A stretch of 64,000 nucleotides of DNA from Candidatus Liptonbacteria bacterium (lineage in GTDB: Bacteria > Patescibacteriota > Minisyncoccia > UBA6257 > 2-01-FULL-56-20), in NCBI GenBank assembly GCA_016204335.1, contig JACQKU010000011.1, positions 541 through 64,540 on the forward strand. The letters run 5' to 3'. Shown piece after piece: positions 8,960 through 63,806 of this stretch. Under the pieces are notes generated by a model. That model was not told where the DNA came from. It ran no database searches and saw only the letters and a program-made list of their open reading frames with translations. The translations under genes and the position numbers were made by a program. Position 1 is the stretch's first letter, and every line of letters begins with the position of its first letter.

Positions 8960-9514
8960 ATGAGCGAAACGCAAAAAACTTCCCGCCTCGGCGGTCTTTT
9001 AATAACTTCGACATCCGCCTGGGGTTTCGTGTGGTTTGTGAACGGCAATTTGGTCGGCTGGATGGAGAATTCTTTATGTTTTAAATATCTCGGCTGTAAT
9101 GTCGGCTTTTTCGGCTACGACGCCCTTGTTCATTTTCTTGCCGGAATAATGGAAGCAGTGTTTATTCTTTGGCTCGCGAAGAAATTTCCGAAGTTCGATT
9201 TTTTCTCCCAACCGAATACCGATTCTCCTCTTACGGAAAAAAACTTCCTGAAAAACGCTGTCACGCTCATAGCATTGGTCGCGTTGCTGAGCATCGGCTG
9301 GGAATTTTTGGAATTCGGTTATGACCAAGCAAGGATAAATGTATTCCATCACGACCTGCTATATCCGACCAACAGTTTGCGTCAAGCGGGCAACGCCGAC
9401 ACAATGGGCGATTTATTTTTCAGCCTGCTCGGCGCCGCGATTATGACAGTCGCGCCGAAATTTTTCGATAAAAAGCGCCTGACGGCAAACGCCGATAACT
9501 TAGAAAATATCTAA
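8960..9514 (+). CDS. Hypothetical integral membrane protein
   Basis: 184 aa, several hydrophobic segments; ATG start; no recognisable family. Confidence 0.5.
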   Translation: MSETQKTSRLGGLLITSTSAWGFVWFVNGNLVGWMENSLCFKYLGCNVGFFGYDALVHFLAGIMEAVFILWLAKKFPKFDFFSQPNTDSPLTEKNFLKNAVTLIALVALLSIGWEFLEFGYDQARINVFHHDLLYPTNSLRQAGNADTMGDLFFSLLGAAIMTVAPKFFDKKRLTANADNLENI

Positions 9515-10260
9515 TCTCTCTTTTTCTTCCCTTTCCGCCAAGAAACTCCCCGAAGCAAAGACGCGTATAAATCGTCTTTTGGATTGATGGATAACTCTTT
9601 CACTTCGCTGGAAGACGGATTGCGCGTTTGAAAATGAACGAATGGAACGTCTTCGATAAGCGCGAGGGGGGTTTGCTCGTTCCCTTCTCCAATTGCGAGA
9701 ACCGCCGCGGCGGCAAGCCCTTCGCTTACATTCGCTTTCGTCATTTTTAATTTTCTGCGGAATATGTCCGGCTTGCCGATATAATCGTTCAATGCCGAGA
9801 ATCCGCTATGGGCAAGTACGGTGCCGGTGGTACCCCACCGGAGCGGAGAAGTTCTGCTGTCGGTTATAATCACGCCGATATTTTTCTTCTTAAACCTCTT
9901 TGTCAGATAAACGCGGATTTCGTTCGCCGTTCGCCGTGAATCGCGCGGCCAGAGAATGTACGAGCCGTTGCCGTTCGATTCATCGACTCCAGCCGAAGGA
10001 ATCAGCATATTGTTCTTGATTGTCAGGATAACATTATATTTATTTTGCTTGAGCGGCAAAAAATAATCGGCCTCTTCCTCGATTAATTTCGTCTTATCAA
10101 CCGAATCAACCGGCGCTATCCTGCCCTCGCAGATAGAAACGATTTTTGAAGTCACTGCGAGAATTGACCGCTCAGGAATTTTTTTTACATAGCGGTCCAA
10201 AATATCGCACAGCTTCCGCCCTGGAACAATTTTATCGGTTTTGATTGGAGTTATTTTCAT
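9511..10260 (-). CDS. CofE-like gamma-glutamyl ligase (F420-0:gamma-glutamyl ligase family, PF01996)
   Basis: KIVSICEGRI, GVDESNGNGSYILWP, GVIITDSR...LAIGEG segments align with CofE family conserved blocks (from memory of A. fulgidus CofE). Confidence 0.7.
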   Translation of the reverse strand: MKITPIKTDKIVPGRKLCDILDRYVKKIPERSILAVTSKIVSICEGRIAPVDSVDKTKLIEEEADYFLPLKQNKYNVILTIKNNMLIPSAGVDESNGNGSYILWPRDSRRTANEIRVYLTKRFKKKNIGVIITDSRTSPLRWGTTGTVLAHSGFSALNDYIGKPDIFRRKLKMTKANVSEGLAAAAVLAIGEGNEQTPLALIEDVPFVHFQTRNPSSSEVKELSINPKDDLYASLLRGVSWRKGKKKRD

Positions 10261-10276
10261 AATTTTGCTTTACCAA

Positions 10277-10310
10277 AACATTCTAACATTCTGCAGAATG
10301 TTAGAATGTT
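10277..10310. repeat. 34-bp perfect palindrome AACATTCTAACATTCTG|CAGAATGTTAGAATGTT (intergenic copy of the HSNILQNVRM palindromic element)
   Basis: Self-complementary; same core as in-frame copies in purB (26790-26821) and purL (31818-31849); central CTGCAG. Confidence 0.9.
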
Positions 10311-10316
10311 ATATTT

Positions 10317-10847
10317 TCACTGAATTACATCGTAGCGCGACAAAAGTGTCCCCTGGCGATTGAGGCGGCGAACCGAAATAAGTTTTAAATTTTTAATCAT
10401 CTTGACGGGATGGACGATATTTTTTCCCGTACCGAAAATTTTCGGCTCCACTGTAAGACAGATATGTTGAATCAAGTTCGCTTTCAGAAATAAAGCGTTT
10501 ATTTCCCCTCCCCCCGCGACCAAAACTCTTTTATACTTTTGTCTTGAAAGGCGGCGGATAATCGCGCGTGGAGAATCGTTTGAAAATTCGAGCTGGCCGG
10601 GAATTTCGTATTTCCGATATTTTTGAGGATTGCGTGTCAAAATAATACGCAACCTTTCCGGAGAAAGCTTCATATACTTTTTCGCTGTCGCGTATGTTTG
10701 ACTGCCCATCACAATCGCGTCGCTTTCTTGAATAAGCCGCGCGAAATATTTTTTGTCGGCGACGGACGCCCATTCGGATGTACCCGACCGTGAACCGCGA
10801 GTAATCTTTCCGTCCACCGAAACGACTGCCGCGAGAATGGTCCTCAT
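10317..10847 (-). CDS. Dihydrofolate reductase-like / RibD C-terminal domain reductase
   Basis: 176 aa; ILAAVVSVDGKI...VMGSQTY...LVAGGGEINALFL pattern of RibD_C/DHFR family. Confidence 0.7.
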   Translation of the reverse strand: MRTILAAVVSVDGKITRGSRSGTSEWASVADKKYFARLIQESDAIVMGSQTYATAKKYMKLSPERLRIILTRNPQKYRKYEIPGQLEFSNDSPRAIIRRLSRQKYKRVLVAGGGEINALFLKANLIQHICLTVEPKIFGTGKNIVHPVKMIKNLKLISVRRLNRQGTLLSRYDVIQ

Positions 10848-16407: not shown

Positions 16408-16854
16408 ATGAGTAAGCCCAAAGTAAAAACCATAACGATTTGCAGCAGCGCTTCGTTTTTCAAGCAAGCCGTCGAAATGGAAGCGAAGCTGAAAAAATTG
16501 GGATTCAAAGTGGAATTGCCGCCTACCGCCTTGAAAATGAAACGGAGCAATGATTTTAATGTGCTACATTACAAAACATGGTTTAAAAATCCGGACGACT
16601 ATAAGAAAAAAGGTTTTCTGCTTAGAGAGCACTTCAATAAAGTCATACGAAGCGACGTAGTGCTAATTTTAAATTATGAAAAACATGGGATTAAAGGATA
16701 TATTGGCGGGAATACTCTTATTGAAATGGGATTTGCATTTCACTACAAAAAACCCATTTACATCTTGAATCGGATATCGGGATTGCCTTACAAAGAAGAA
16801 ATACTGGGTTTCCAGCCAATCTTCATCAATGGAGATATCAAGAAAATAGTTTAG
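16408..16854 (+). CDS. Nucleoside 2-deoxyribosyltransferase-like / DNPH1(Rcl)-like protein, low-GC gene
   Basis: 148 aa; ITICSSASFF N-terminal nucleotide-binding strand and GGNTLIEMGFAFHYKKPIY with conserved Glu typical of NDT/Rcl fold; gene about 38% GC versus about 50% surroundings. Confidence 0.45.
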   Translation: MSKPKVKTITICSSASFFKQAVEMEAKLKKLGFKVELPPTALKMKRSNDFNVLHYKTWFKNPDDYKKKGFLLREHFNKVIRSDVVLILNYEKHGIKGYIGGNTLIEMGFAFHYKKPIYILNRISGLPYKEEILGFQPIFINGDIKKIV

Positions 16855-16871
16855 GATTAAAATTTACTTGC

Positions 16872-18494
16872 ATGAAAAAAATGAAAACAGCGCTCATATC
16901 GGTTTACCATAAAGACGGCATCGCCGAGTTTGCGAAAGAACTTGTCGGGCTCGGGTTTACGATTTACGCGTCAGGCGGAACCGCTAAACATCTCGCGGCG
17001 GCCGGCGTTGAAGTTACTGACGTGGCAATGTTGGTCGGCGGCGGCGCGATTCTCGGCCATCGCGTAGTCACGCTTTCGCGCGAAATCCACGCGGGGCTTC
17101 TGTCGCGGAACGTTCAGGAAGACATCGACGAACTCGCGCGGCTCGGCATCCCCCGCTTTGACCTCGTCTGCGTTGACTTGTATCCGCTCGAAGAAGAAAT
17201 CGCGAAACCGGACGGCACAAGAGAATCGGTAATCGAAAAAACCGACATCGGCGGTCCGACCTTGATTCGTTCCGCGGTAAAAGGCGGACGGCTCGTGATT
17301 TGCGAACCGGATGACCGGCAAAAAGCAATCGACTGGCTCAAGGCCGGCGAACCGGAAATAGCGACAAGGGACATGCGACAAGGAATAAGCGAATCAAAAG
17401 GTTTTATGGAAAAGCAAGCCGCCAAGGGAGAATTTATTGTCGCGAAATATGTTTCTGCTTCTGCCGAATATTTAAGCAATGGAAAATATGCCGACATGTT
17501 AGGACAAGAAATCGCCGCGTGCAAATACGGCGAAAACGCGGCGCAGACACCAGCGGCTCTTTTTTCCTCCGGCGCAAACGACCCTCTCGCGCTCGACAAA
17601 TTCAAACTAATCGAAGGAATCGCGCCGAGCTACAACAACTGGTGCGACATTGACCGGATGCTTCAGACAATCACGCACATCGCCGCCGCGCATTCAAAAA
17701 ATCGAAACTCGATTCCGTTCATCGCAGTCGGCGTAAAACACGGCAACGCGTGCGGCGCCGCCGTCGGCGATTCAAAATCCGAAGCGCTCAAAAAAATGAT
17801 GGCCGGCGACCCGCTCGCCATATTCGGCGGACTGATTATGACGAATTTTCCCGTTAACGAAAGCGTGACGGAACATCTCGCCGGAAAACTGCTCGATGCC
17901 GTCATCGCTCCGGGTTTTTCCCCGGAAGCGATTGCCGCGTTAAAACGGAAAGGCGGCAAATGCCGGCTCATCGCGAATGAAGCTTTGCAATCGCTTGACG
18001 AAAAATGTTTGGATAACGCTGTCCGTTTCCGGTATGTCCGCGGCGGATTCCTGCGCCAGCCGAATTATACGTTCGTTCTTGATTTGAAAAGCGAGGAACT
18101 CAAAAAATATGGGGCAATCTCGCCGGAACTGGAAAATGATTTGCTTCTCGCGTGGGCAATCGGAGCCACGAGCAACAGCAACACCATTGCCATCGTGAAA
18201 AACGGCCAACTTCTCGGCAACGGCGTTGGCCAGCAGGACCGCGTCGGCGCTGCGAAACTAGCGATCGAGCGGGCGCGCCGTTCAGAACACGACATAAAGG
18301 GAGCGGTTGCGTACAGCGATTCGTTCTTTCCTTTTCCCGACGGCCCGAAAATTCTTATCGATGCCGGAGTAAAAGCGATTCTCGCGACAAGCGGCTCAAT
18401 CAGGGACAAAGAAATAATTTCTTTATGCCAAGAACTGAACGTAGCGCTCTATATGATACCTGACGCCGTCGGCCGCGGATTTTTCGGGCATTGA
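16872..18494 (+). CDS. purH: Bifunctional AICAR transformylase / IMP cyclohydrolase
   Basis: 540 aa; N-terminal MGS-like IMPCH domain (ALISVYHKDGI...YASGGTAKHL) and C-terminal AICARFT domain. Confidence 0.9.
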   Translation: MKKMKTALISVYHKDGIAEFAKELVGLGFTIYASGGTAKHLAAAGVEVTDVAMLVGGGAILGHRVVTLSREIHAGLLSRNVQEDIDELARLGIPRFDLVCVDLYPLEEEIAKPDGTRESVIEKTDIGGPTLIRSAVKGGRLVICEPDDRQKAIDWLKAGEPEIATRDMRQGISESKGFMEKQAAKGEFIVAKYVSASAEYLSNGKYADMLGQEIAACKYGENAAQTPAALFSSGANDPLALDKFKLIEGIAPSYNNWCDIDRMLQTITHIAAAHSKNRNSIPFIAVGVKHGNACGAAVGDSKSEALKKMMAGDPLAIFGGLIMTNFPVNESVTEHLAGKLLDAVIAPGFSPEAIAALKRKGGKCRLIANEALQSLDEKCLDNAVRFRYVRGGFLRQPNYTFVLDLKSEELKKYGAISPELENDLLLAWAIGATSNSNTIAIVKNGQLLGNGVGQQDRVGAAKLAIERARRSEHDIKGAVAYSDSFFPFPDGPKILIDAGVKAILATSGSIRDKEIISLCQELNVALYMIPDAVGRGFFGH

Positions 18495-20357: not shown

Positions 20358-20525
20358 ACAAACTCCCTTTCACCCTCACGCTCGGAGATTTCCCGTATTA
20401 TTAAACATAAAAAGCTACTTCATAAAATTCATATGTCCGGATGAACCTACCTCTGTATCTTGTTCACGTCCCGCGCTCCGAAAAACTTTAACACTATTGA
20501 CTATAAATTGACTATAATATGATGC

Positions 20526-20566
20526 CCGCTATGCCATAGCATAGCGGTATGCTATGGCATAGCGGG
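20526..20566. repeat. 41-bp palindromic repeat CCGCTATGCCATAGCATAGCGGTATGCTATGGCATAGCGGG, copy 1 (3' of regulator gene)
   Basis: Identical 41-mer also at 21112-21152; itself an imperfect palindrome built from GCTATG/CATAGC half-sites. Confidence 0.9.
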
Positions 20567-20574
20567 CGGAGAAA

Positions 20575-21093: not shown

Positions 21094-21111
21094 ATGATAG
21101 AGTATAGCATA

Positions 21112-21152
21112 CCGCTATGCCATAGCATAGCGGTATGCTATGGCATAGCGGG
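21112..21152. repeat. 41-bp palindromic repeat, copy 2 (immediately 5' of regulator gene start)
   Basis: Exact match to 20526-20566; ends 19 nt upstream of ATG 21093. Confidence 0.9.
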
Positions 21153-26085: not shown

Positions 26086-27576
26086 CTATAACTCTCCACT
26101 CGCAAGTTTCTCGGCCAATCCGACATAGCTCTCCGGCGTGATTTTAAGGAGTTCTTCTTTTACTTGCGCCGACACATCGAGCCCGTTTATAAACGCCCGC
26201 ATGTCTTCAATCGTTACTGTTTTGCCGCGCGTGAGTACTTTCAGTTTTTCATACGGCATCGCAACGCCCTCGCGCCTTAAAACTGTTTGAATCGCCTCGG
26301 CGATGACTTCCGGATGAAGGTTCAAATCTTCGAGAACTTTTTCTTTGTTCGCTTGGATTCGCCCGAGTCCGTTCAAAAGATTTGCGTAAGCGACAACGGA
26401 ATGCGCGAGCGCAACGCCGAAATTCCGCTCCACCGTCGAATCGGAAAGGTCGCGCTGGAGGCGCGATATAGGCAGTTTCGACGAAAAATAACTAAATAAC
26501 GAATTCGCAATACCTAAATTTCCTTCACTATTTTCGAATTTTATCGGATTTATTTTGTGCGGCATCGTGGATGAGCCGATTTCCCCTTCGTTCGCTTTCT
26601 GCGCAATCCAGCCGTCGCTGATGTAGCGCCAGATATCCTGATTGAAATCAATGAGAATCGTATTTATGCGGCGGAGTAAATCGAAAAGTTCGACGTATGT
26701 GTCGTGCGGTTCGATTTGCGTCGTGAAAAGATTCGGTTCGAGCGTTATGGTTTTTTTTTGATTTTGCGCGGCTCCGCCCGCACCGGACGACATTCTCACA
26801 TTCTGCAGAATGTGAGAATGTTCCCGCAAGCGTGTGACGAAATTTTTCGTGAAATCAAGCCAATCAACTTCAGGATACGCAACAACATTCGCGCTGTAAT
26901 TGCCGGTTGCTCCGTTCAATTTGACGAGAATGCGGAATGAACGCAGTTGCCCGATTTGCCGTTCCAACCGCGCGGCAAAAACCTTGAATTCTTTCCCGAA
27001 TGTCGTAGGAGTCGCCGGCTGGCCGTGCGTCCGCGCGAGCATCGTCAAATTTTTATATTCTTTCGCGAATTCCTCCAATTTCGCGGTTATTTTTTCGAGA
27101 AGCGGCAGAATCACTTTTTCGATTCCGTCGCTCAACATAAGCCCGTAGGCAAGATTATCAATGTCTTCCGAAGTAAGCGCGAAATGAATCCATTCAAGGC
27201 AGTCCTTGAGAGAAGTATTCTCCAACTGGTCGCGCATAAAATATTCTATCGCTTTCACATCGTGGTCCGTGGCTTTGATATTTTTATATCCCGCTCGCTC
27301 GATGTCTTTTATGATTTTTGCATTCTCGAGCGTAAGTTCGGAAAGATTTCGAATCAATGATTTTTCCTCTTCGGAAAAATCGCGGAGGCCTGCCCGCTCA
27401 CCAAAATTTTTGGTGTGAGGGCCGATGTCGGGATGCTCGGACAGCGCGATAAGATATTCCGCTTCGACAAAAAGCCGATAGCGCATCATTCCCGCCTCGC
27501 TGAAAATCTTCGCGAGCGGTTCCGTATATTCCCTATATCGCCCGTCAATCGGGCTTATTGATTCGAGAAAATTCAT
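26086..27576 (-). CDS. purB: Adenylosuccinate lyase carrying an in-frame palindromic-element insertion
   Basis: 496 aa; fumarate-lyase signature GSSTMPHKINPIKFEN; about 24 extra residues (REHSHILQNVRMSSGAGGAAQNQKK) between conserved FVTRL and TTQIEPHD blocks relative to E. coli PurB (from memory). Confidence 0.9.
   Translation of the reverse strand: MNFLESISPIDGRYREYTEPLAKIFSEAGMMRYRLFVEAEYLIALSEHPDIGPHTKNFGERAGLRDFSEEEKSLIRNLSELTLENAKIIKDIERAGYKNIKATDHDVKAIEYFMRDQLENTSLKDCLEWIHFALTSEDIDNLAYGLMLSDGIEKVILPLLEKITAKLEEFAKEYKNLTMLARTHGQPATPTTFGKEFKVFAARLERQIGQLRSFRILVKLNGATGNYSANVVAYPEVDWLDFTKNFVTRLREHSHILQNVRMSSGAGGAAQNQKKTITLEPNLFTTQIEPHDTYVELFDLLRRINTILIDFNQDIWRYISDGWIAQKANEGEIGSSTMPHKINPIKFENSEGNLGIANSLFSYFSSKLPISRLQRDLSDSTVERNFGVALAHSVVAYANLLNGLGRIQANKEKVLEDLNLHPEVIAEAIQTVLRREGVAMPYEKLKVLTRGKTVTIEDMRAFINGLDVSAQVKEELLKITPESYVGLAEKLASGEL
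26790..26821. repeat. 32-bp perfect palindrome ACATTCTCACATTCTG|CAGAATGTGAGAATGT inside purB, in frame (encodes HSHILQNVRM)
   Basis: Self-complementary; differs from copy at 10277 by a compensatory pair (A>C with T>G) that preserves the palindrome. Confidence 0.9.
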
Positions 27577-31386: not shown

Positions 31387-34300
31387 TTAGTAATTCGCAA
31401 ATGTTGATTTGTATGCGGCAAGAATTTCGGGAAGCGGCAGTTTCATATTTTTCTTTTTCCTTCGTATCACGATTTTTTCCTGTTTCACGACCGAGCCGAT
31501 TTTCGCAAAGCTCGTTCCGGTCATTAATTTCTCGAATTTCCGCATATTTTCCGGCGCGACTGTCGCGATAATTCTCCCCTGGCTCTCGGAAAAAAGAGCC
31601 GTAGTGTCATTCGAAAATTTTCCGGGCAGTTTTTTGAGCGATACATCAAACCCGAGTTTTCCTCCCATCGCGGTCTTGCACAACGCGACCGCCAACCCTC
31701 CTTTCGAAACACTGATTGCGGAAGCGACAATCCCTTCGCGGACGCATTTCGAAAACGCCCGATAGAGTTTTCTGTTTTTCGCCGCATCCACGCACGGCAC
31801 CAAACTGTCGCAAAACGACATTCTAACATTCTGCAGAATATTAGAATGTTTTTTGTCGTCTATAAGTGATGCATATTCACTTCCTGCCATCTCGTCGTAC
31901 GTATTACCGAGCGCGTACACCAAATCGCCCGGGCATTTTGCGTCGAGCGATACCGTTTTTTCGGCGTCAGGCACCACGCCGATAGCGGAAATAAGGAGCG
32001 TCGGCGGCACTGAAATTTTTACCGGCTTGCCATCTTCGTCATATCCTTTGAAATCGTTGAACATCGAATCCTTGCCGGAAATGAACGGCGTTTCATAAGC
32101 GACCGCATAGTCGTAACATGCCTGCGCGGCGCGCTTGAGCTGATATAGCCGCTCCGGCTCGTTCGAACTGCACCAGCAAAAATTGTCGAGAAGCGCGATA
32201 TAATCCGGGTCGGCGCCCGCCGCGACAGCGCTCCGAATCGCCGTATCAATCGCGCATGCCGCCATTTTGTACGAATCGATTTCAGAATATGAAGGAGCGG
32301 CGCCGGAAGAAAGAACAATCGCTTTTTTTGAATCCAAAAGCGGCCGCACGGCCGACGCGTCCCCGTTCACTCTGCCTTTGCCCTGGAGCGGCTTCAAAAC
32401 GGAACCTGCCTGCACTTCATGGTCGTATTGCATCGATAAAAATTCGTAACTCGCGATATTCGGGCGCGCAAGCATATTTTTGATTGCGAGCGAAAGGTCG
32501 CGCGATTCTGTTTCAGCCGCTGACATACCAACAAACTCCAGTTTATAAGGATGTGTTTCTTTGGTGGCGAGGTGGCGGCGGGGCCAGCCGTCGTGCAAAA
32601 ACCCCAAATCCAAGTCCATTATTTTCTTTCCGCGATAGTTCACCGCGCACTTTCCCGATGAAGTAAATCTGCCGATAACAGTCGCTTCCACTCCCCGCTT
32701 TTCCAATAGCGAATGAAGCGCCGCCCATTTATTTTTCGGCACGGCGAGCGTCATCCGCTCCTGCGATTCGGAAATCCATATTTGCCACGGCGCGAGTCCC
32801 GGATACTTCAACGGGACTTTATCGAGAGCGACTTCGCATCCGTTCGATTCGCGCGCCATCTCCGCCACCGAACACGAAAGGCCGCCGGCGCCGTTATCCG
32901 TGATGCTGTTATACAATTTTTTATCCCGCGCTTCTTTCACAATCGCGTCGCTCAATTTTTTCTGCGTGATTGGGTCGCCGATTTGCACCGCGGTCGCCGG
33001 GCTTCCCGAATCAATCGCCTCGGAAGAAAATGTCGCTCCGTGAATGCCGTCTTGGCCGACACGGCCTCCGACCATCACGATATAGTCGCCGGGCTTGGCT
33101 TGTTTTTTATGCGACGGTTTTCCGGCCACGGTCCGCGGAATCAAACCGACGGTTCCCGCGAACACGAGCGGTTTTCCGCGATACCTTTTGTCGAACAGCA
33201 TAAATCCCTGCGGCGTCGGAATGCCCGAGCAATTGCCGCCGACATTCACTCCTTGAATTACGCCTTCCATAATGCGCCGCGCCGAGAGAATTTTTTCCTT
33301 CCGTTCCGCGTCGCGGTAAAAAACGCTTTTGTCGCCCGTTCGACCGGGCTCAGGGCGACCCTGAGTGGAATCGAATGGGTCGCGCGGGTCGGCCCCTCGA
33401 CGCGGCTCGGGGCAAGCGAAGCAAAATCCGTAGACATTCGCCACCGGCTTCGCGCCCAAGCCAAACCCGACTGTATCGCGATTCACGCCGAGAATTCCAG
33501 TGATGGCGCCGCCGAACGGGTCAAGCATCGAAGGAGCGTTGTGCGTTTCCACTTTGTGCGTGACGAGATGCTTATCGTCGAACGCAATCGCTCCGGAGTT
33601 GTCGGTGAACACCGAAACGCAGAAATCGCGCCTGCCTTTCTTTTTGCGGATTACATTCGTCGCCGCTTTGATGTAAGAGCGGTAAATTCCGTCTTTTATT
33701 TCATCGATGGGATTCGCGAAAATCGTATGCTTGCAGTGTTCCGACCACGTCTGCGCGAGCGATTCCAGTTCTATGTCGGTCGGCTTCCGCTTTTGACCAC
33801 GGAAATATTCCCTGATTGTTTTCATACTGTCGAGGTCGAGCGCCAACGGGCCGCGGCGGCTTCCGTCCGGATTCGCTATTCCCTCTTTCCCGATGCATGT
33901 TAACTCGCTGTCGTCAACATCAAGGTTTACAGTACCGACCGACACCGACGAAACGAGCGCAACTTTCGGCGCGCTGATTCCCATGCCGCCGTCTTTTTTG
34001 AATTGTTTGAAACTTTTTATCTCCGCGCGCTGAATCAGCGGATTATACAGAGTGTCTGCGACGCGACGCGCGTCCTCTTCCGACAATTTTCCGGAAAGGA
34101 AAAAAACCTGCGAAGAATATGTTCCTTGCCCGCTTTTGAATTTTTTTCCTAAAAAATCCTCGATTGTTTCTTTCGCGGTCGAGCCGATATTGTCGGTGAC
34201 GCCCGGCAAATATCCGACTTCTATCGCCCAGTCGAATTTCGCCGGCGCCTGATTTTGATTTACGGTTGCGCGTTCCACAAGCGGATTCTCCAGAAGCCGC

Positions 34301-34467
34301 GCGACCGCCTGCAACTGCGAACTGGTAAGATTCGCGTCAATGATATACGAATCAACCAAATCCACGGATTTCACATTTCCATTGAAACCGATGCTTTCGA
34401 GATGCCGGAGTTTTACCGCGGCTCGAGTATCGGGAACTTTGTATTTTATATCGATACGGGCGGGCAT
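31387..34467 (-). CDS. purL: PurS-PurS-PurL fusion: FGAM synthase II with tandem N-terminal PurS-like domains and two in-frame repeat-element insertions
   Basis: 1026 aa; two ~85-aa PurS-like repeats then PurL core (ETHNAPSMLDPFGGAITGILGVNRD...); insertions at 31818-31849 and ~33335-33425. Confidence 0.85.
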   Translation of the reverse strand: MPARIDIKYKVPDTRAAVKLRHLESIGFNGNVKSVDLVDSYIIDANLTSSQLQAVARLLENPLVERATVNQNQAPAKFDWAIEVGYLPGVTDNIGSTAKETIEDFLGKKFKSGQGTYSSQVFFLSGKLSEEDARRVADTLYNPLIQRAEIKSFKQFKKDGGMGISAPKVALVSSVSVGTVNLDVDDSELTCIGKEGIANPDGSRRGPLALDLDSMKTIREYFRGQKRKPTDIELESLAQTWSEHCKHTIFANPIDEIKDGIYRSYIKAATNVIRKKKGRRDFCVSVFTDNSGAIAFDDKHLVTHKVETHNAPSMLDPFGGAITGILGVNRDTVGFGLGAKPVANVYGFCFACPEPRRGADPRDPFDSTQGRPEPGRTGDKSVFYRDAERKEKILSARRIMEGVIQGVNVGGNCSGIPTPQGFMLFDKRYRGKPLVFAGTVGLIPRTVAGKPSHKKQAKPGDYIVMVGGRVGQDGIHGATFSSEAIDSGSPATAVQIGDPITQKKLSDAIVKEARDKKLYNSITDNGAGGLSCSVAEMARESNGCEVALDKVPLKYPGLAPWQIWISESQERMTLAVPKNKWAALHSLLEKRGVEATVIGRFTSSGKCAVNYRGKKIMDLDLGFLHDGWPRRHLATKETHPYKLEFVGMSAAETESRDLSLAIKNMLARPNIASYEFLSMQYDHEVQAGSVLKPLQGKGRVNGDASAVRPLLDSKKAIVLSSGAAPSYSEIDSYKMAACAIDTAIRSAVAAGADPDYIALLDNFCWCSSNEPERLYQLKRAAQACYDYAVAYETPFISGKDSMFNDFKGYDEDGKPVKISVPPTLLISAIGVVPDAEKTVSLDAKCPGDLVYALGNTYDEMAGSEYASLIDDKKHSNILQNVRMSFCDSLVPCVDAAKNRKLYRAFSKCVREGIVASAISVSKGGLAVALCKTAMGGKLGFDVSLKKLPGKFSNDTTALFSESQGRIIATVAPENMRKFEKLMTGTSFAKIGSVVKQEKIVIRRKKKNMKLPLPEILAAYKSTFANY
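31818..31849. repeat. 32-bp palindrome ACATTCTAACATTCTG|CAGAATATTAGAATGT inside purL, in frame (encodes HSNILQNVRM), one mismatch
   Basis: Core 31819-31848 identical to intergenic copy except G>A at 31840. Confidence 0.9.
33335..33425. repeat. GC-rich palindromic element inserted in frame in purL (encodes CPEPRRGADPRDPFDSTQGRPEPGRTGDK)
   Basis: About 75% GC stretch with stems GTCGCCC...GGGCGAC and CTCAGGG-cga-CCCTGAG in a gene otherwise about 50% GC; region between PurL conserved MGAKP and GGNC blocks is about 35 aa longer than in B. subtilis/T. maritima PurL (from memory). Confidence 0.6.
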
Positions 34468-37468: not shown

Positions 37469-38515
37469 ATGTCCCAAAATATTTTTCTCGCGGCAATCTT
37501 TATAGCGGTACTCGCCGGTTTTTATGTTCTATGGTCGGCTTTGCGCCGCCGCGACGAAGAAAAAAAACCGGACCAGTCCTCGCTTCTTATTCAAAATCAG
37601 CTGAACGAGCTGACGCGGACGCTTGACTTAAAACTCGGCGACGTGGGACGCGCCACGGAACATCAGTTCAGCCAGAGCGTGAAAATAGTCGGCGAAGTTA
37701 TGGAGCGGCTGACAAAACTCGACGAAACTAACAAGCAGGTCGTCAACTTCGCCGACCAGCTGAAAAATCTGCAGGATATTTTGAAAAATCCGAAACAGCG
37801 CGGCGTACTCGGCGAATATTATCTCGAAACAATCCTACGGAATATTTTCCCGCCGTCGAATTATCAGATGCAGTATCCGTTCAAAGACGGCACGATTGTA
37901 GACGCGGTCATTTTCATCGGCAACCAGGTCGTGCCGGTTGATTCAAAATTCAGTTTGGAAAATTACAACCGTTTGATAAACGAATCGGACGCTCTGGCGC
38001 GCGAACGACTCGAAAAACAATTCGTTGCTGATTTGAAAGCGCGGATTGACGAAACCGCGAAATACATCAAACCCGGAGAAGGAACCGTGAATCTCGCGTT
38101 TATGTTTATTCCGTCAGAAGCGATTTATTACGACCTTCTCATAAACCAGGTCGGAGCGACAAAATCAAACACGCGCGACTTGATTGACTACGCCTACAAC
38201 GAAAAGCACGTGATTATCGTATCTCCGACAACGTTCTCCGCGTATCTTCAGGTATTGTTCCAGGCGCTCCGCGCGTTCAAAATTCAGGAATCAACCGAGG
38301 AGATAAAAAAGGAAATCGAAAAACTGACCGGCCATCTTTCGAAATACGACGACTTTATGCTGAAAGTCGGAAAAAATCTCAGCCAGACGGTTTCAAGCTA
38401 CAACACCGCTTACAAAGAATTCTCGAAAATCGACAAAGATATTTTGAAAATCACAGGCGAATCAATCGATGTTGAGCCGCTCGTTTTGGAACGACCGCAG
38501 GAAGTTGAGAAATAA
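37469..38515 (+). CDS. rmuC: DNA recombination protein RmuC
   Basis: 348 aa; N-terminal TM, coiled-coil, C-terminal RmuC nuclease-like domain (NLAFMFIPSEAIYYDL). Confidence 0.8.
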   Translation: MSQNIFLAAIFIAVLAGFYVLWSALRRRDEEKKPDQSSLLIQNQLNELTRTLDLKLGDVGRATEHQFSQSVKIVGEVMERLTKLDETNKQVVNFADQLKNLQDILKNPKQRGVLGEYYLETILRNIFPPSNYQMQYPFKDGTIVDAVIFIGNQVVPVDSKFSLENYNRLINESDALARERLEKQFVADLKARIDETAKYIKPGEGTVNLAFMFIPSEAIYYDLLINQVGATKSNTRDLIDYAYNEKHVIIVSPTTFSAYLQVLFQALRAFKIQESTEEIKKEIEKLTGHLSKYDDFMLKVGKNLSQTVSSYNTAYKEFSKIDKDILKITGESIDVEPLVLERPQEVEK

Positions 38516-38517
38516 AC

Positions 38518-39765
38518 TTATTTCTTCTTCCTCCTTAAAAACGTCGGGATGTCCCAGATGTCGCTTTCCTTGTCTGGTTTCAAAGGCGGTTTCTTTTTTG
38601 GTTCGATGTGTTCCGGTTTGTCGCTCGCCAAGGGAGAATTTTTTTCTTTCGCGTTCGGCGAGGCGGCCGGCAAATCATCGAACTTTCCACCGCTTCCCCC
38701 GTTTCTTTCTTCAATCAGAAAACTTTCCCGCTTGGTCTGATATGTTCCGAACAGGGAATTTGCCGGAAGCATTCCGTTGATGCCCGTAGCGATGAGCGTT
38801 ATTTTAATCTGATTCGGCTTGAGGTTACGGTCGCGGTACGCGCCGAAAATTATTCTTGCTCCCGGGTCGGCCGCCTGCGCCACCAATCGCGCCGCTTCGC
38901 TGACTTCGTTCATCCCGAGGTCGCGGCCGCCCGAAATGCCGAGAAGAATGGCTTTGGCGCCTTCCGCGTTCACTTCAATAAGCGGAGAGTTGATGGACTG
39001 TTTTACCGCTTCGGTTGCCCGCTCCGGACCGCTCGCGATGCCGAGTCCGACAATCGCAGTGCCCGCGTTTTCCATAATGGACCGCACATCGGCGAAATCC
39101 AGATTGATTATCCCCGGAGCGACAATCAGTTCCACAATGCCCTGGAGCGCGCTCCGCAAAACGTCATCGATGGCTTCGAACGCTTTTAAAAGCGGGGTGT
39201 CTTTTGAAATAACGCTGAAAATCCGGTCGTTTGGAACGACAATCAGCGCATCCACTCTGTCCCGCAGCTTCGCAAGGCCTTCCTGAGAAATGCGGTCCCT
39301 TTGGCTGCCTTCGAAGCCGAACGGTCTCGTCACAAACGCAAGCGTCAACGCGCCTGCCTGCTTCGCGATTTCCGCCACGACCGGCGTGGCGCCCGTGCCG
39401 GTTCCTCCTCCGAATCCGGCGGCCAAAAAAACCAAGTCCGCTCCTTTGAGCGCCTCGGCAATTTCCGAGCGATTTTCTTCTGCCGCCTGCCGGCCGATAT
39501 CGGGGTTCATTCCGGTCCCGAGACCGCGGGTCAAATTGCGGCCGATATAGATTTTTCTGCGGACTCCGCAACGGTCCAAATCCTGATGGTCGGTGTTGAT
39601 GGCGATAAATTCCACTCCGCGGATGAAATTGCGGCTCATCCGCGATATCGCGTTGCCGCCGCCGCCGCCGATGCCGACAACTTTGATGACTATCGGCGAA
39701 TTGTCCAATTTTTCTTTCTTAATCTTAATTTTCGGATGGGACTTTTTTTTCATGGTAGTAATCAC
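38518..39765 (-). CDS. ftsZ: Cell division GTPase FtsZ
   Basis: VVGIGGGGGNAISRM, GGGTGTG tubulin signature. Confidence 0.95.
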   Translation of the reverse strand: MITTMKKKSHPKIKIKKEKLDNSPIVIKVVGIGGGGGNAISRMSRNFIRGVEFIAINTDHQDLDRCGVRRKIYIGRNLTRGLGTGMNPDIGRQAAEENRSEIAEALKGADLVFLAAGFGGGTGTGATPVVAEIAKQAGALTLAFVTRPFGFEGSQRDRISQEGLAKLRDRVDALIVVPNDRIFSVISKDTPLLKAFEAIDDVLRSALQGIVELIVAPGIINLDFADVRSIMENAGTAIVGLGIASGPERATEAVKQSINSPLIEVNAEGAKAILLGISGGRDLGMNEVSEAARLVAQAADPGARIIFGAYRDRNLKPNQIKITLIATGINGMLPANSLFGTYQTKRESFLIEERNGGSGGKFDDLPAASPNAKEKNSPLASDKPEHIEPKKKPPLKPDKESDIWDIPTFLRRKKK

Positions 39766-42739: not shown

Positions 42740-42744
42740 GTTAA

Positions 42745-42830
42745 AATGCAAATATCAAAATGGAAAATGACAGATAAAAATGTAAAAATTTTGAATTTTA
42801 CATTGTCATTTTGAACTTTGATTTTTAATT
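42745..42830. repeat. AT-rich inverted-repeat intergenic element, family 2 (copy 1 of 3)
   Basis: caaatatcaaaatggaaaatgacagataaaaatgtaaaaa...tttacattgtcattttgaactttgatttttaatttttga; related copies at 56149-56262 and 62685-62798. Confidence 0.7.
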
Positions 42831-43238
42831 TTTGATTTTCTTTATACGTTCTGCAATTTCACGGATTGTTTCTTTCGGCTGATTATCGACCACTGAATGG
42901 ATTGAACCGCCGCCGTCATTTTGAAATCGCGGAATGATATGAATATGAAAATGCTCAATGGTCTGGCCGCTCGCTTTGCCCTGATTGATGCCGATTGTAA
43001 ATCCATCCGGCGCAAGAACCTTCTGCAATAATTTCGTCACATTCCTGACTGCGGAAAAGAGCGGCGCAAGTTCGCCTTCTCCCAAATCAAGAATGGTTTC
43101 GGCGTGTTTCTTCGGCATTACCATGCTGTGCCCAAGGGCAATCGGATGAATATCAAGTATCGCGAACGCGCCGTCATCCTCATAAATGATTTCTGACGGA
43201 ATCTCCTTATTGCCGATTTTGCAAAAGAGGCAGTCCAT
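42825..43238 (-). CDS. HIT-family nucleotide hydrolase
   Basis: Histidine triad HFHIHIIPR. Confidence 0.85.
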   Translation of the reverse strand: MDCLFCKIGNKEIPSEIIYEDDGAFAILDIHPIALGHSMVMPKKHAETILDLGEGELAPLFSAVRNVTKLLQKVLAPDGFTIGINQGKASGQTIEHFHIHIIPRFQNDGGGSIHSVVDNQPKETIREIAERIKKIKN

Positions 43239-43243
43239 AATTT

Positions 43244-43355
43244 TAGAAATTGGTTGTTAGAAAATAGATATTGGTAATGTAAAATGGAAATTAGAAATTA
43301 ATTGATTTTCTATTTTCCAGTTTCTAATTTCTATTACTATTTTCCAATTTCCAAA
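43244..43355. repeat. AT-rich inverted-repeat intergenic element, family 1 (copy 1 of 2)
   Basis: gaaattggttgttagaaaatagatattgg...attttctattactattttccaatttccaa; second copy 54843-54929 with same termini. Confidence 0.7.
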
Positions 43356-54842: not shown

Positions 54843-54929
54843 GAAATTGGTTGTTAGAAAATAGAAATTGGAAATTTGAATTTGGTCAACTATTTTCTAT
54901 TACTATTTTCCAATTTCCAATAACTACTT
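54843..54929. repeat. AT-rich inverted-repeat intergenic element, family 1 (copy 2)
   Basis: Shares 5' GAAATTGGTTGTTAGAAAATAGAAATTGG and 3' TATTTTCTATTACTATTTTCCAATTTCCAA termini with 43244-43355. Confidence 0.7.
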
Positions 54930-54935
54930 TCCACT

Positions 54936-56147
54936 TTAGAATTGACCGGTCAGCTGATAAATCGGCACGATGATGGCAAGCGCGATTACCGCGACCAATA
55001 TACCCATAATGAGAAGGAGGACCGGTTCGAGAAACGAAAGCAAGGAATGTATGCTGGATTCCACGCTTGACTGGTAAAAATCAGCGAGCGTGGAAAGAAC
55101 CTCCTCAAGATGTCCCGCTTTTTCGGAAATGGCGACTAAATTCGTGACGACTTTCGGAAATGCCTCTTCGCGGCGAAACGCCTCTCCGATTGTAAGGCCT
55201 TTTGCCAGGCCTTCGTTCGCGACCCTCATCAAGCTCGTCCGGAATTTTTCCGAACCGACGACTTCCGCGGTAATGGTTGCCACATGAATAATCGGCAGGC
55301 CGGCCGCCATCAGCGCGCTGAATGTGGAAGCAAATCGTTGAATCGCTATGTCCCGGTAAATTTTTCTGACGAGAGGCAAACGGGAAAGCATCTGGCTCAT
55401 AACCCGCCGCCCCGTGGCATTTTTCCAAAAAAAGTAAGTCGCAAACCCGACAACTGAAATCAGAATGGAGGCCAGAACGACAATATTGTCTCCTATAAAA
55501 AGACCGGCGGTGAACACGACTCTTGAAAAAAGCGGCGGCTTTATGTCGGTTTGCAGAAAAGCGGTGGCGATTTTCGGCAGCGCGAACGTAACCAGAAAAC
55601 CGATGATGACAACCGACATCGCCGAAAGAATAATCGGATAGACCAGCGCCGAGCGAATCTTACCTTTTAACTCGGCTTCCCGCTGGAGCGAAACGCTTAA
55701 GTCCTCGAATGTTTGCTGGAGATTGCCGGACGTCTCGGACGCCTTCACCAGATTGATAAACACGACTGAAAATACTTTGGGATGCTCCGCAAAGGTCTGA
55801 TAAAACGGCCTGCCTCTTGTAAGATTTTCCCGTATCTCGAGAAGAAAGGTCTTCATTGCCGGCTTGTCGAAATCGGCTATCAGGATATTGACGGCGGACA
55901 AAAGGTCGGTCCCCACCTTAAGCATCAGAGACAAATACTTGGTCAGGAAAATTTTATCGGTTGTGTTGATGTCTTTGGAGAACCTGCTGCGGGACGTACG
56001 CAGGGGTTTTACCGAAAGCGGACGCATCCCTTTTGCCACGAGGTACTGAAGCGCCTGATTCAGATTGTCAGCCTCCAGCTGGTCTTCCGTGATTTTTCCG
56101 TTTTTGTCGGACGCGGAGTAGTGGTACAACATAAATTTAAAAATCAA
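54936..56147 (-). CDS. pilC: Type IV pilus / T2SS platform protein (PilC/GspF family)
   Basis: 403 aa, two T2SSF domains, 3 TM. Confidence 0.85.
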   Translation of the reverse strand: MIFKFMLYHYSASDKNGKITEDQLEADNLNQALQYLVAKGMRPLSVKPLRTSRSRFSKDINTTDKIFLTKYLSLMLKVGTDLLSAVNILIADFDKPAMKTFLLEIRENLTRGRPFYQTFAEHPKVFSVVFINLVKASETSGNLQQTFEDLSVSLQREAELKGKIRSALVYPIILSAMSVVIIGFLVTFALPKIATAFLQTDIKPPLFSRVVFTAGLFIGDNIVVLASILISVVGFATYFFWKNATGRRVMSQMLSRLPLVRKIYRDIAIQRFASTFSALMAAGLPIIHVATITAEVVGSEKFRTSLMRVANEGLAKGLTIGEAFRREEAFPKVVTNLVAISEKAGHLEEVLSTLADFYQSSVESSIHSLLSFLEPVLLLIMGILVAVIALAIIVPIYQLTGQF

Positions 56148-61852: not shown

Positions 61853-62693
61853 TTAACAAATTTTCAAGCTGAAGCCGGGGATTAAGATTCAAGTGGTCGG
61901 TATTCCGCCGTAAGTCAAGAATCTTGTGCCACAATTTGAGATTGATTTTTGCGGGAATTTCTTTATTTGAAAGAATCATCAAAAGGATTTCCAGAAATTC
62001 GCTAAGATTGAAATCATCCGGCTCTATAAGAGTTTTTATCATCTCGCGGCGCGCCCAAAACCCGGATTTGAGAAACGCTTCGCCGGATTTTCGCATCTCG
62101 CGAAACCGTCCGTCAAAAAGCATTTTCCAGGCAAGCCCCGGCTGGCCCGACGACAATTTTGCGATTGCTCCGGCTTCTTGCCCCTTGCCGAATTTTTCTT
62201 TGAGCCAATTCTCGATAAGCGCGGAATGAACCGGTGAAAAATAGATTTTCTGGAGCCGCGATTGAAGCGTCGGTAAAAGTTTTTCGGGGTCGCGGGCAAC
62301 GAGAATCAGAAGCGAGGATTCCGGCGGTTCTTCGGCGACTTTCAAAAGCGCGTTTTGCGCTTCCACGGTCATTGCTTCGACATCGTTGATAACGACCGTT
62401 CTTTTTTTGCTTACAACCGGCTTTTGCCACAAAAAATTCCTGATTCGGCGGATTTCGTCGATTCCGACGGTTCCTTCCTCATTCGGTTCGAGCAATAGCG
62501 AGTCACGGAGCATATTCGATTCTTCAAAATCTCCGGTTTCAAGAAAATTCGCGAAAGAAAGAGCGAAAAGCTTCTTGCCTGCGCGGGCGGGTCCGCAGAA
62601 AAGATACCCGTGCGAAAGTTCGTTTCTTTCGGCAAGACCTTTGAAATCTTCAACCAGTTGTTCGTGGCCGATTAACATAAATTCAAAAATCAA
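61842..62693 (-). CDS. holB: DNA polymerase III delta-prime subunit-like AAA+ protein
   Basis: LFCGPARAGKKLFALSFANFL P-loop-like, clamp-loader box, 283 aa. Confidence 0.7.
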   Translation of the reverse strand: MIFEFMLIGHEQLVEDFKGLAERNELSHGYLFCGPARAGKKLFALSFANFLETGDFEESNMLRDSLLLEPNEEGTVGIDEIRRIRNFLWQKPVVSKKRTVVINDVEAMTVEAQNALLKVAEEPPESSLLILVARDPEKLLPTLQSRLQKIYFSPVHSALIENWLKEKFGKGQEAGAIAKLSSGQPGLAWKMLFDGRFREMRKSGEAFLKSGFWARREMIKTLIEPDDFNLSEFLEILLMILSNKEIPAKINLKLWHKILDLRRNTDHLNLNPRLQLENLLNEV

Positions 62694-62798
62694 ATATCAA
62701 AAATAAAAATGACAAATCAAAATGTAAAAATGAATTTTATCGTTTGGGCTTTTTGCATTTTACATTTTCATTTTGCACTTTGATTTTTACAGTTTGAT
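62685..62798. repeat. AT-rich inverted-repeat intergenic element, family 2 (copy 3)
   Basis: aaaatcaaatatcaaaaataaaaatgacaaatcaaaatgtaaaaatg...cattttgcactttgatttttacagtttga; near-identical 5' arm to copy at 56149. Confidence 0.7.
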
Positions 62799-63806
62799 TT
62801 ATCTTTTGTTCAGTAATGTCTGCTTATATTTATCCAAATGCTCGAGAATCAGTCCGGTTCCTTTGGCGACGCAAAAAAGCGGATTTTCCGCGACATAGGT
62901 GGAAACGCCCAAAAACCTTTCGAAAAACTCCGGCAAGTAGTGAAGCTGGGCGCTGCCTCCCGAAAGAATGATTCCTTTTTCCATTATGTCGGCGACGAGT
63001 TCCGGCGGCGTGACATTGAACACGTTCTGCACCGAGCCGGCGATTTCTATCAGAAACGGATTGAGCGCTTCCGCTATTTCATTGCTGTTGATAACAAGGT
63101 CTTTCGGCAATCCGGTAATAAGATTCCGGCCGCGGAACTGGTATTCCATTTTTTCTTTAGAGGGCAGGGCGGCGCCGATTTCGATTTTTATGTGCTCGGC
63201 GGTTTGTTCTCCTATCGCAATCGAATATTTTTTCTTAACGTAATCGGCAATTGCCTGGTCGAATTTATTGCCGGCAACCCGCAAGCTCGTCCACGAAACA
63301 ATGTTGCCGAGCGCGATGACCGCCACTTCGGATGTGCCGCCGCCGATATTGATGACCATATGGCCGGAACGCGCGTTGATGGGAATGCCTGCGCCGAGCG
63401 CGGCTAGAACCGGTTCGCGGACAATGAACGCGTTCCGCGCGCCTCCTTCAAGGGTCGCGTTGACGACAGCGCGGCGCTCTGTCTGGGTAATGCCCGCAGG
63501 AACCGAAACAATCACATCCGGTTTGAAAATATTTAGGCGGCCGACCGCCTTTGCGATAAAATAAGTGAGAAGCGCTTTGGTGATATAGTAGTCCGCGATG
63601 ACGCCGTCTTTAAGCGGCCGGTACGCCATGATTTCTTCCGGCGTTCTGCCGATCATTTCCTTTGCTTCCACGCCGACCGCAAGCACCGAATTATGCGGTT
63701 TTCTAAGAGCCACAATGGTCGGCTCGTTGATGATAAACCCTTTGCCAGGCACGAACACCACTGTATTCGCCGTCCCCAAATCAATGCCGATTTTACGAGT
63801 GAGCAT
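62799..63806 (-). CDS. mreB: Rod shape-determining protein MreB
   Basis: IGIDLGTANTVVF, actin-fold phosphate loops. Confidence 0.9.
   Translation of the reverse strand: MLTRKIGIDLGTANTVVFVPGKGFIINEPTIVALRKPHNSVLAVGVEAKEMIGRTPEEIMAYRPLKDGVIADYYITKALLTYFIAKAVGRLNIFKPDVIVSVPAGITQTERRAVVNATLEGGARNAFIVREPVLAALGAGIPINARSGHMVINIGGGTSEVAVIALGNIVSWTSLRVAGNKFDQAIADYVKKKYSIAIGEQTAEHIKIEIGAALPSKEKMEYQFRGRNLITGLPKDLVINSNEIAEALNPFLIEIAGSVQNVFNVTPPELVADIMEKGIILSGGSAQLHYLPEFFERFLGVSTYVAENPLFCVAKGTGLILEHLDKYKQTLLNKR

Follow-up and report, generated by a model that had tools for sequence, protein, structure and literature searches.

A 32-bp palindrome inserted in frame in purL of a Candidatus Liptonbacteria genome is probably a dispersed copy of a winged-helix protein's operator

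We analyzed a 64,000-nucleotide stretch of a Candidatus Liptonbacteria genome assembly (contig JACQKU010000011.1, positions 541 to 64,540), referred to hereafter as the window, in which a short palindrome lies inside purL, a gene of purine biosynthesis. The open reading frame (ORF) at 31387-34467 on the minus strand encodes an FGAR-AT_linker, an AIRS and two AIRS_C domains and was identified as PurL on this basis; the protein is 100% identical to the NCBI phosphoribosylformylglycinamidine synthase (FGAM synthase) from a Candidatus Liptonbacteria metagenome-assembled genome (MAG). The plus strand at 31818-31849 reads ACATTCTAACATTCTGCAGAATATTAGAATGT, a 32-bp palindrome with no spacer and with an A at 31840 where symmetry needs a G. 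The features of the site are as follows.

31387-34467, minus strand: purL (FGAM synthase, 1026 aa), the host gene; the element is placed in a variable-length loop of the C-terminal AIRS_C domain
31818-31849, no strand assigned: 32-bp palindrome, the purL copy, with halves ACATTCTAACATTCTG and CAGAATATTAGAATGT and one mismatched pair (A at 31840)
31816-31851, minus strand: in-frame insertion of 12 codons, K873 to S884 (KHSNILQNVRMS), which carries the palindrome; the gap cannot be placed exactly

On the gene strand the copy is read as CAT TCT AAT ATT CTG CAG AAT GTT AGA ATG, that is HSNILQNVRM, with the H at residue 874 of 1026 and the C-terminus 153 codons away. The original prediction had placed the element at these coordinates, with this mismatch, this frame and this distance from the C-terminus, and all of these match the sequence. 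When PurL orthologues were compared, conservation of the segment in distant taxa was not found. Among the best 120 PurL homologues only the window's own protein contains HSNILQNVRM, which is absent from the other 119, and an alignment of the first 60 of the 120 shows a variable-length loop at this site. The closest orthologue (P0002, 80% identity) lacks the 12 residues, and PurL of Thermus (3VIU) has a 13-residue gap at the same position. The locus of P0002 (L120) is syntenic with the window (purL-purQ-HAD-purE-purC-purB), and a search of L120 that allowed up to 6 mismatches found no copy of the palindrome. The palindrome in PurL is a lineage-specific in-frame insertion. L120 and the window share 85-87% nucleotide identity over three conserved stretches (window 16849-17356 and 37554-39753), one of which overlaps ftsZ of L120. 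The arrangement of the pur cluster differs between the two, with RibD_C after purB in L120 and 16 kb away in the window.

The window contains two further copies, one of them in a second purine gene.

26790-26821, no strand assigned: perfect palindrome copy in purB, with C/G at the variable position, read in frame as HSHILQNVRM
26764-26826, minus strand: insertion of 21 codons in PurB (REHSHILQNVRMSSGAGGAAQ) relative to the L120 orthologue, comprising the palindrome and a G+C-rich tail
10278-10309, no strand assigned: perfect intergenic copy in the 56-bp spacer from the stop of a RibD_C/DHFR-like gene to the start of an F420-ligase-like gene

When the window was searched with the 30-mer core, allowing 3 mismatches at most, copies were returned at 10279-10308 and 31819, and the same search gave no match in 100 dinucleotide-preserving shuffles. 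Half-sites of 16 nt were found 6 times, compared to 0.35 expected, and recovered the third copy at 26790-26821. The in-frame purB copy that the original prediction had named as the counterpart of the purL element is thus real; its host is the adenylosuccinate lyase ORF at 26086-27576 (minus strand, 496 aa), and the two copies are about 5 kb apart within one operon. The intergenic copy is bordered by the RibD_C/DHFR-like gene at 10317-10847 and the F420-ligase-like gene at 9511-10260, both on the minus strand. The probability that the purL element is a chance similarity or native PurL sequence is virtually nil, given the absence of matches in shuffled sequence and in 119 homologues and the presence of an identical 32-mer in more than 80 other genomes.

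The central 24 nt served as the query in a scan that covered a single genome for each GTDB species; counts from here on are of the matches and loci listed and are lower bounds. The palindrome was found in at least 119 loci, and these come from more than 80 MAGs, nearly all of them Patescibacteria; the G+C content of the loci ranged from 26 to 62%. Saccharibacteria, Paceibacterota, Liptonbacteria, Jorgensenbacteria, Doudnabacteria, Moranbacteria and Giovannonibacteria were represented, among others. A few MAGs that carry it are labelled Kiritimatiellia, Verrucomicrobiota, Gammaproteobacteria or Pacearchaeota. No copy was present in viral contigs, phage records or plasmid records, which argues that this is not a phage or plasmid element, and a literature search by motif string and by topic returned no description of it. 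The consensus, ACATTCTnACATTCTG joined at the center to CAGAATGTn'AGAATGT, is made of four units of 8 bp, of which two are direct and two inverted. Its extended form, A(A/C)A-ACATTCTnACATTCTGCAGAATGTnAGAATGT-T(T/G)T, has full symmetry, and the element measures 32-38 bp. Perfect 32-mers made up 79 of the 137 copies that fit the scan pattern.

In 21 of the loci fetched with the palindrome, a small conserved winged helix-turn-helix (wHTH) ORF ends within a copy, where ACA TTC TAA encodes the final TF and the stop. Eighteen of these genes are complete at the 5' end, and in all 18 another copy lies upstream of the ATG, at a distance of 14-46 bp. Loci fetched by the protein alone (L122-L125) had both copies in 4 of 4 cases; every copy lay no more than about 450 bp from the regulator gene, and the rest of the approximately 81 kb fetched around these genes held no further copy. 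At up to 5 mismatches there were 190 copies, of which 75 stood no more than 100 bp from a winged-helix gene and 89 belonged to loci that have none. The wHTH family was by far the commonest among 264 neighbouring ORFs (34 loci compared to 6 for the next); TspO, a Pif1-like helicase and a Zn-ribbon family came after it. A special tie of the element to purine genes did not stand up: the motif occurs across Patescibacteria and its home is at both ends of the winged-helix regulator gene, a feature that the window alone does not reveal. Nor did the G>A change at 31840 hold as the mark of an older or decaying copy, since the same variant is found in copies that flank the regulator gene, for example the upstream copy in L108, and so provides no evidence for decay of the purL copy.

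The two home copies are of different types. In 19 of 35 cases the upstream copy is the symmetric CC/GG variant (ACATTCCAAC...GTTGGAATGT), which creates a TTGGAA that is followed, after a 17-nt spacer, by a TATAAT-like -10 hexamer; a -10-like hexamer stands at this fixed spacing in most. The upstream copy therefore overlaps the -35 box. The downstream copy was of the CT/AG type in 33 of 33 cases, supplies the TAA stop, overlaps the last two codons and has a fixed offset in 30 of 33. An inverted repeat stands upstream of the start codon in each of the complete genes and each of the protein-fetched loci, as an operator overlapping the gene's own promoter would. Because copies stand at both ends of the regulator gene in loci fetched by either route, linkage and geometry indicate that the palindrome most probably serves the winged-helix protein as its operator.

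The genes that follow the regulator vary. TspO is the most frequent, and an EamA-like transporter, a rhodanese, an acylphosphatase and a zincin also occur; MsrA/MsrB and a pyrimidine-dimer glycosylase were near the regulator in one locus. In the region about 10 kb upstream of the regulator gene, L122-L125 all have defence-type genes (restriction-modification, AbiE, SMODS/SLATT, AIPR and HEPN-NTase), with the regulator gene just downstream of them, which suggests a variable genomic island. The palindrome-bearing loci from MAGs labelled Verrucomicrobiota, Kiritimatiellia, Terrimicrobiaceae or Pacearchaeota (L005, L021, L043, L045, L046, L076, L097 and L119) have a G+C content of 30-58%, and a regulator-like gene was found in 5 of the 8 (L005, L043, L045, L046 and L119), although the match in L043 is only 42% identical. 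Horizontal transfer, mis-binning or mislabelling could explain these eight loci.

The protein is 88 aa long, with the consensus MKTxKQLERYFKGAANHRRI.IL...NFKTISQHTRSLVQAGLLNKKY.GR.V.HSLSPYGK.F..FMKTF, and its best 120 database relatives are 88-103 aa long and all at least 72% identical. Pfam gave HTH_5, MarR and HTH_24 matches; HTH_5 reached 30.3 bits (cut-off 22) in one member, while another had only sub-threshold HTH_24 and RuvB_C matches. NCBIfam HTH_metalloreg scored 33.9 bits, under its cut-off of 55. Sequence matches in the PDB were to HlyU (2e-6) and CadC (5e-5), and also to ArsR and SmtB. An AlphaFold2 model (predicted local distance difference test score 88.7) has the element order H-H-H-H-E-E-H, and Foldseek matched it to MarR, MepR, CadC, HlyU and SmtB with probabilities up to 1.00 and TM scores of 0.7-0.8, the best being MarR/ArsR repressors; model and matches together place the protein in the winged helix-turn-helix fold. 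In an alignment of 15 sequences no Cys was conserved (one Cys substitution only) and no canonical metal or redox sensor pattern (alpha3N Cys pair or alpha5 His/Asp/Glu site) was seen; H17 and H51 were invariant and H72 nearly so. The lack of a conserved Cys indicates that this is not a classical metal sensor, and we describe the protein as ArsR/MarR-like rather than as a metalloregulator.

A small winged-helix protein with a palindrome over its own promoter is the arrangement of the ArsR/SmtB autorepressors (SmtB, CzrA, CadC, HlyU). Operators of that family can take a two-dimer 12-2-12 form, which the present 32-bp site of four half-site-like units recalls. Unlike those systems, this one has no recognizable metal-sensor site, has a second site at the stop codon, and keeps site and protein nearly invariant across many lineages while the site is dispersed even into coding sequence.

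The Foldseek search also matched the model to the 84-residue centromere-binding protein AspA of pNOB8 (4rs8; TM 0.76/0.80). This raises the alternative of a protein-palindrome pair for chromosome or plasmid organization, centromere- or parS-like, with intragenic copies as tolerated landing pads. The parS site is a conserved palindrome that has copies in coding regions and a copy within its binding protein's own gene. The present palindrome shares with parS/ParB and AspA its conservation in multiple lineages, its few copies, the presence of some of them in coding sequence, and the one at the 3' end of the (predicted) binding protein's gene. However, the protein belongs to another family, no ParA/ParB-type partner or partition ATPase is consistently adjacent, the copies are clustered at the borders of genes within local arrays, and the exact -35/-10 geometry of the upstream copy overlaps a promoter as an operator would. 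We consider a parS-like function very unlikely.

Away from the regulator gene, copies mostly fill intergenic spacers, and 102 of 115 dispersed copies are of the downstream (CT/AG) type. Runs of co-directional genes have a copy in each spacer in L118, L061 and L076. A 3.2-kb part of L118 (1831-4981) has seven copies, one or two per spacer, with CC/GG copies among the CT/AG ones; the genes there include a second wHTH gene, those for an NYN-domain protein and a Cys-rich protein of 331 aa, and the genes of the 88-aa regulator and of TspO.

Roughly a tenth of the copies are intragenic, and these are read through. Besides PurL and PurB of the window, they lie in TsaC, YchF (different sites in two genomes), PrmC (one shared site, three genomes), a GlcD-like oxidase, TspO (one shared site, two genomes), two glycosyltransferases, Pgk, Tgt and a TruB-like protein. 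All 17 genuine intragenic copies, in Patescibacteria loci, use the frame HS[NHD]ILQNVRM. Of the other frames, one contains TAA and another reads ILTFCRMLEC and gains a TGA in the C/G variant; three apparent read-throughs in a frame other than HS[NHD]ILQNVRM were discarded as spurious ORFs, two being antisense to a real gene and the third also judged spurious. Use of a single frame in 17 of 17 copies argues that intragenic copies are translated and filtered by selection rather than placed by coincidence, since excision from the mRNA would leave no preferred frame. The original prediction had judged the same element in the same frame in two purine genes to be non-random. The repeated element is indeed real, but the shared frame is no independent coincidence, because frame selection accounts for it. 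In PrmC and TspO the decapeptide stands in place of a native segment about as long, and in PurL, PurB and Tgt it lies in net insertions. For PrmC, 45 nt across the element are identical between L047 and L117 while neighbouring codons show many synonymous differences; this nucleotide-perfect copy between diverged orthologues fits intragenic copies acting as functional DNA sites. The PrmC orthologue in L116 has another symmetric variant at the same site. For annotators and structure modellers, HS[NHD]ILQNVRM in a Patescibacteria protein should be taken as the mark of a DNA-level insertion and not as a protein motif.

In-frame insertions of this kind are known from the Rickettsia palindromic elements (RPEs), which measure about 100-150 bp and form the families RPE-1 to RPE-10. 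As there, palindromic repeats stand in frame in housekeeping genes of a reduced genome, tolerated as a surface peptide, and both the 17 intragenic copies and the comparison with orthologues display in-frame insertion. To our knowledge, RPEs occur only in Rickettsia, and no cognate gene for a DNA-binding protein is known for them. Length and host set the present element apart: it is 32-38 bp long, is conserved in many lineages of Patescibacteria and has a regulator gene as its anchor. It thus extends the phenomenon to a second lineage with reduced genomes and provides a first link to a cognate (predicted) DNA-binding protein.

These features also suit a non-autonomous mobile palindrome, of the repetitive extragenic palindrome (REP), MITE (miniature inverted-repeat transposable element) or RPE type, moved in trans by a transposase or HUH nuclease acting on the hairpin, with the wHTH gene as a preferred site or as a host factor responsible for its binding or silencing. 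The element is an insertion that orthologues lack, stands in many unrelated contexts, and in one MAG is contained in a repeated unit of about 130 bp; its arm symmetry and flank extension (see below) would suit a hairpin intermediate, the gene between two copies recalls REP-RAYT-REP (RAYT, REP-associated tyrosine transposase), and another in-frame palindrome, unrelated to this one, has changed place between purB and purL in a pair of related genomes. Other results weigh against this reading. At 114 dispersed copies, no excess of 2-8 bp direct repeats (target-site duplication) was seen under four boundary definitions compared to re-paired flanks, unlike a MITE, and no transposase or integrase family was enriched among the 264 neighbouring ORFs. 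Furthermore, viral, phage and plasmid sequences carry no copies, most of the genomes sampled by protein carry copies only at the regulator gene, and the flanked gene encodes an 88-aa wHTH protein without a catalytic domain. We think this explanation unlikely. REPs and bacterial interspersed mosaic elements with their RAYT are likewise hairpin-forming, multi-copy, mostly intergenic palindromes of 20-40 bp that can enclose a gene. REPs, a family described in PMC3733652, are imperfect palindromes with a conserved GTAG/CGTC tetranucleotide at one end. The present element has no GTAG/CGTC, is a perfect loopless palindrome, encloses a wHTH gene and not an HUH/Y1 transposase gene, has a low copy number in most genomes and includes intragenic in-frame copies. 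DNA uptake sequences (USS/DUS) are short motifs that also occur in genes in preferred frames, in poorly conserved segments, and as inverted pairs after genes; they are 9-12 bp long at about 1 per kb, compared to a 32-bp palindrome with 0-3 copies per 20-64 kb here. The element is best described as an operator-type palindrome with a cognate (predicted) winged-helix gene, dispersing in frame into housekeeping genes, and it lacks defining features of REPs, MITEs and RPEs.

Variable position 8 and its partner at position 25 form an A/T pair in 74 copies, C/G in 30, G/C in 13 and T/A in 5, and is mismatched in 14 of 136; the 122 Watson-Crick pairs among 136 compare with about 42% predicted from the marginals by our own arithmetic. 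In 16 of the 79 perfect copies, compared to about 0.4 expected, palindromy reaches 4-10 bp into otherwise unique flanks. Symmetric co-variation and flank extension point to hairpin-templated correction or to selection for the hairpin; template switching at palindromes is established from quasipalindrome mutagenesis.

Folded as RNA, the purL copy forms a 14-bp stem with a 4-nt loop on the mRNA strand (-19.4 kcal/mol, z = -5.6), and the hairpins of the copies range from -18 to -25.5 kcal/mol with z of about -5 to -6. Only 4 of the 15 pairs in the stem are G-C. The element might act in RNA, as a terminator or as an mRNA-stabilizing or processing hairpin, the purL copy being a hairpin within the message. 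Besides the stability of the hairpin, this is favored by A and T runs beside many intergenic copies, by the 10278 copy, which was terminator-like in a simple scan (on the plus strand, opposite to the genes), and by the purL mismatch, which is a G.U pair on the mRNA strand and leaves the 14-bp stem intact. On the other hand, sequence and not only pairing is nearly invariant across loci of very different G+C content, and the pairs are Watson-Crick on both strands, a symmetry of DNA. At purL and purB the copies lack a U tract and did not pass the terminator scan, and an Rfam covariance-model scan of the region gave no match (at best 19 bits, compared to gathering scores of 40-80). The upstream home copy precedes the -10 box and hence would be largely untranscribed. 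An RNA-level role is in our estimation highly improbable.

The 32 bp can also be read as the core site of a tyrosine recombinase, with 13-bp arms and a 6-bp CTGCAG center as in dif, lox and FRT, in which case the genes between copies would be exchangeable cassettes. The 13-6-13 architecture is readable in the sequence, the L118, L061 and L076 arrays with a copy per spacer look cassette-like, and the regulator loci lie in variable, defence-rich regions. Nevertheless, no recombinase was enriched nearby, and the triplet equivalent to the integron GTT holds the freely variable position. Chimeric CC/AG arms, which recombination between the two home copies would produce, were found in only 3 of 115 dispersed copies. 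Such a site is exceedingly improbable. Two related candidates were discarded: solo copies as footprints of deletion between two home copies, which predicts those chimeric arms, and likeness to integron attC (TTCTAAC...GTTAGAA compared to RYYYAAC...GTTRRRY), in which a freely variable base would fall inside the would-be GTT/AAC triplet.

We conclude that 31818-31849 is probably a dispersed copy of a Patescibacteria-wide operator palindrome of the 88-aa winged-helix protein. In the mechanism that we propose, the upstream copy at the -35 box would allow autorepression of the regulator gene and the copy at the stop codon would gate read-through into the next gene. Downstream-type copies may have spread from the regulator gene in some lineages, including this Liptonbacteria genome, into spacers and occasionally into genes. 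The purL copy, in a variable surface loop, would be translated as about 12 extra residues and may have survived through lying in the only frame that is both open and hydrophilic, and the symmetry of its arms could be kept by hairpin-templated correction. The findings suggest that what is probably a regulator's binding site can spread into housekeeping genes in the manner of a tiny mobile element.

Several observations weigh against this proposal. The 64-kb window contains no winged-helix gene, and we infer the presence of the regulator in this Liptonbacteria genome from other Liptonbacteria MAGs (L024 and L085). Binding of a dimeric protein alone does not explain the 122 of 136 co-variation or the 16 of 79 flank extensions. 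Dispersed copies show no enrichment of a -10 box at 16-18 nt spacing. Finally, the TspO copy in L123 has decayed by mostly synonymous changes with the peptide kept, and the L118 orthologue is without the element, which argues that at least some intragenic copies are free of constraint at the DNA level. A different role, that of the dispersed copies as portable promoters, was ruled out by the missing -10 boxes together with the result of promoter prediction, which called no promoter at the purL or purB copies.

The idea that the copies in purL and purB work as roadblocks inside these genes, placing the pur operon under the regulator, is speculative; equally possibly, they are neutral passengers. 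A further-reaching version, which we regard as distinctly improbable, is a self-propagating "mobile operator" module in which hairpin-templated copying writes the site into new places, coding loops included, in the one tolerated frame, and in which the pur, prmC, pgk, tgt and ychF operons are under roadblock control. If it were true, housekeeping operons in minimal genomes would be controlled by one of their few regulators. Patescibacteria have tiny genomes and very few regulators, and their transcriptional control is barely known; the protein and its 32-bp site offer a directly testable pair, nearly unchanged across Saccharibacteria, Paceibacterota, Liptonbacteria, Doudnabacteria and others and with a clear promoter architecture.

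Other repeats were observed in the window and its relatives. PurB of the window has a second, unrelated in-frame palindromic insertion at 27391-27423 on the minus strand (GGCCCTCACACCAAAAATTTTGGTGAGCGGGCA, read as GPHTKNFGERA), which is absent from the L120 orthologue; PurL of L120 (P0002, residues 107-117) has AACCCCCACACCAAAAATTTTGGTGAGGGGGCA, read as NPHTKNFGEGA, at a site that is empty in the window's PurL. In the form CCCCCACACCAAAAATTTTGGTGAGGGGG, this second palindrome has about 9 genuine copies in other environmental metagenome contigs; an unrelated conserved gene of a gut organism, which matched through coding, was set aside. Relative to its closest orthologue, PurL of the window also has the extra insertions ACPEPRRG and DPFDSTQGRPEPGRTG (33334-33417, minus strand), whose DNA forms short G+C-rich hairpins such as CTCAGGGTCGCCCTGAG and GCCCGGTCGAACGGGC, and a 6-residue insertion, RDLSLA, further downstream.

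Long A+T-rich inverted repeats of AAAATG/CAAAAT-like units lie at 42743-42833 and 62687-62807, and similar repeats outside the comparison are at 43237-43351 and 54844-54937. In the MAG CAZVCF01, arms of the same kind flank the 32-bp palindrome to form a repeated composite palindrome of about 130 bp (arm loci L023, L036, L041, L070 and L102), and the A+T-rich arms of the window occur without the 32-mer. Another perfect hairpin, GCCCGCTATGCCATAGCATA / TATGCTATGGCATAGCGGGC with a 4-nt loop, is present in two copies, at 20524-20567 and 21104-21151, about 600 bp apart.

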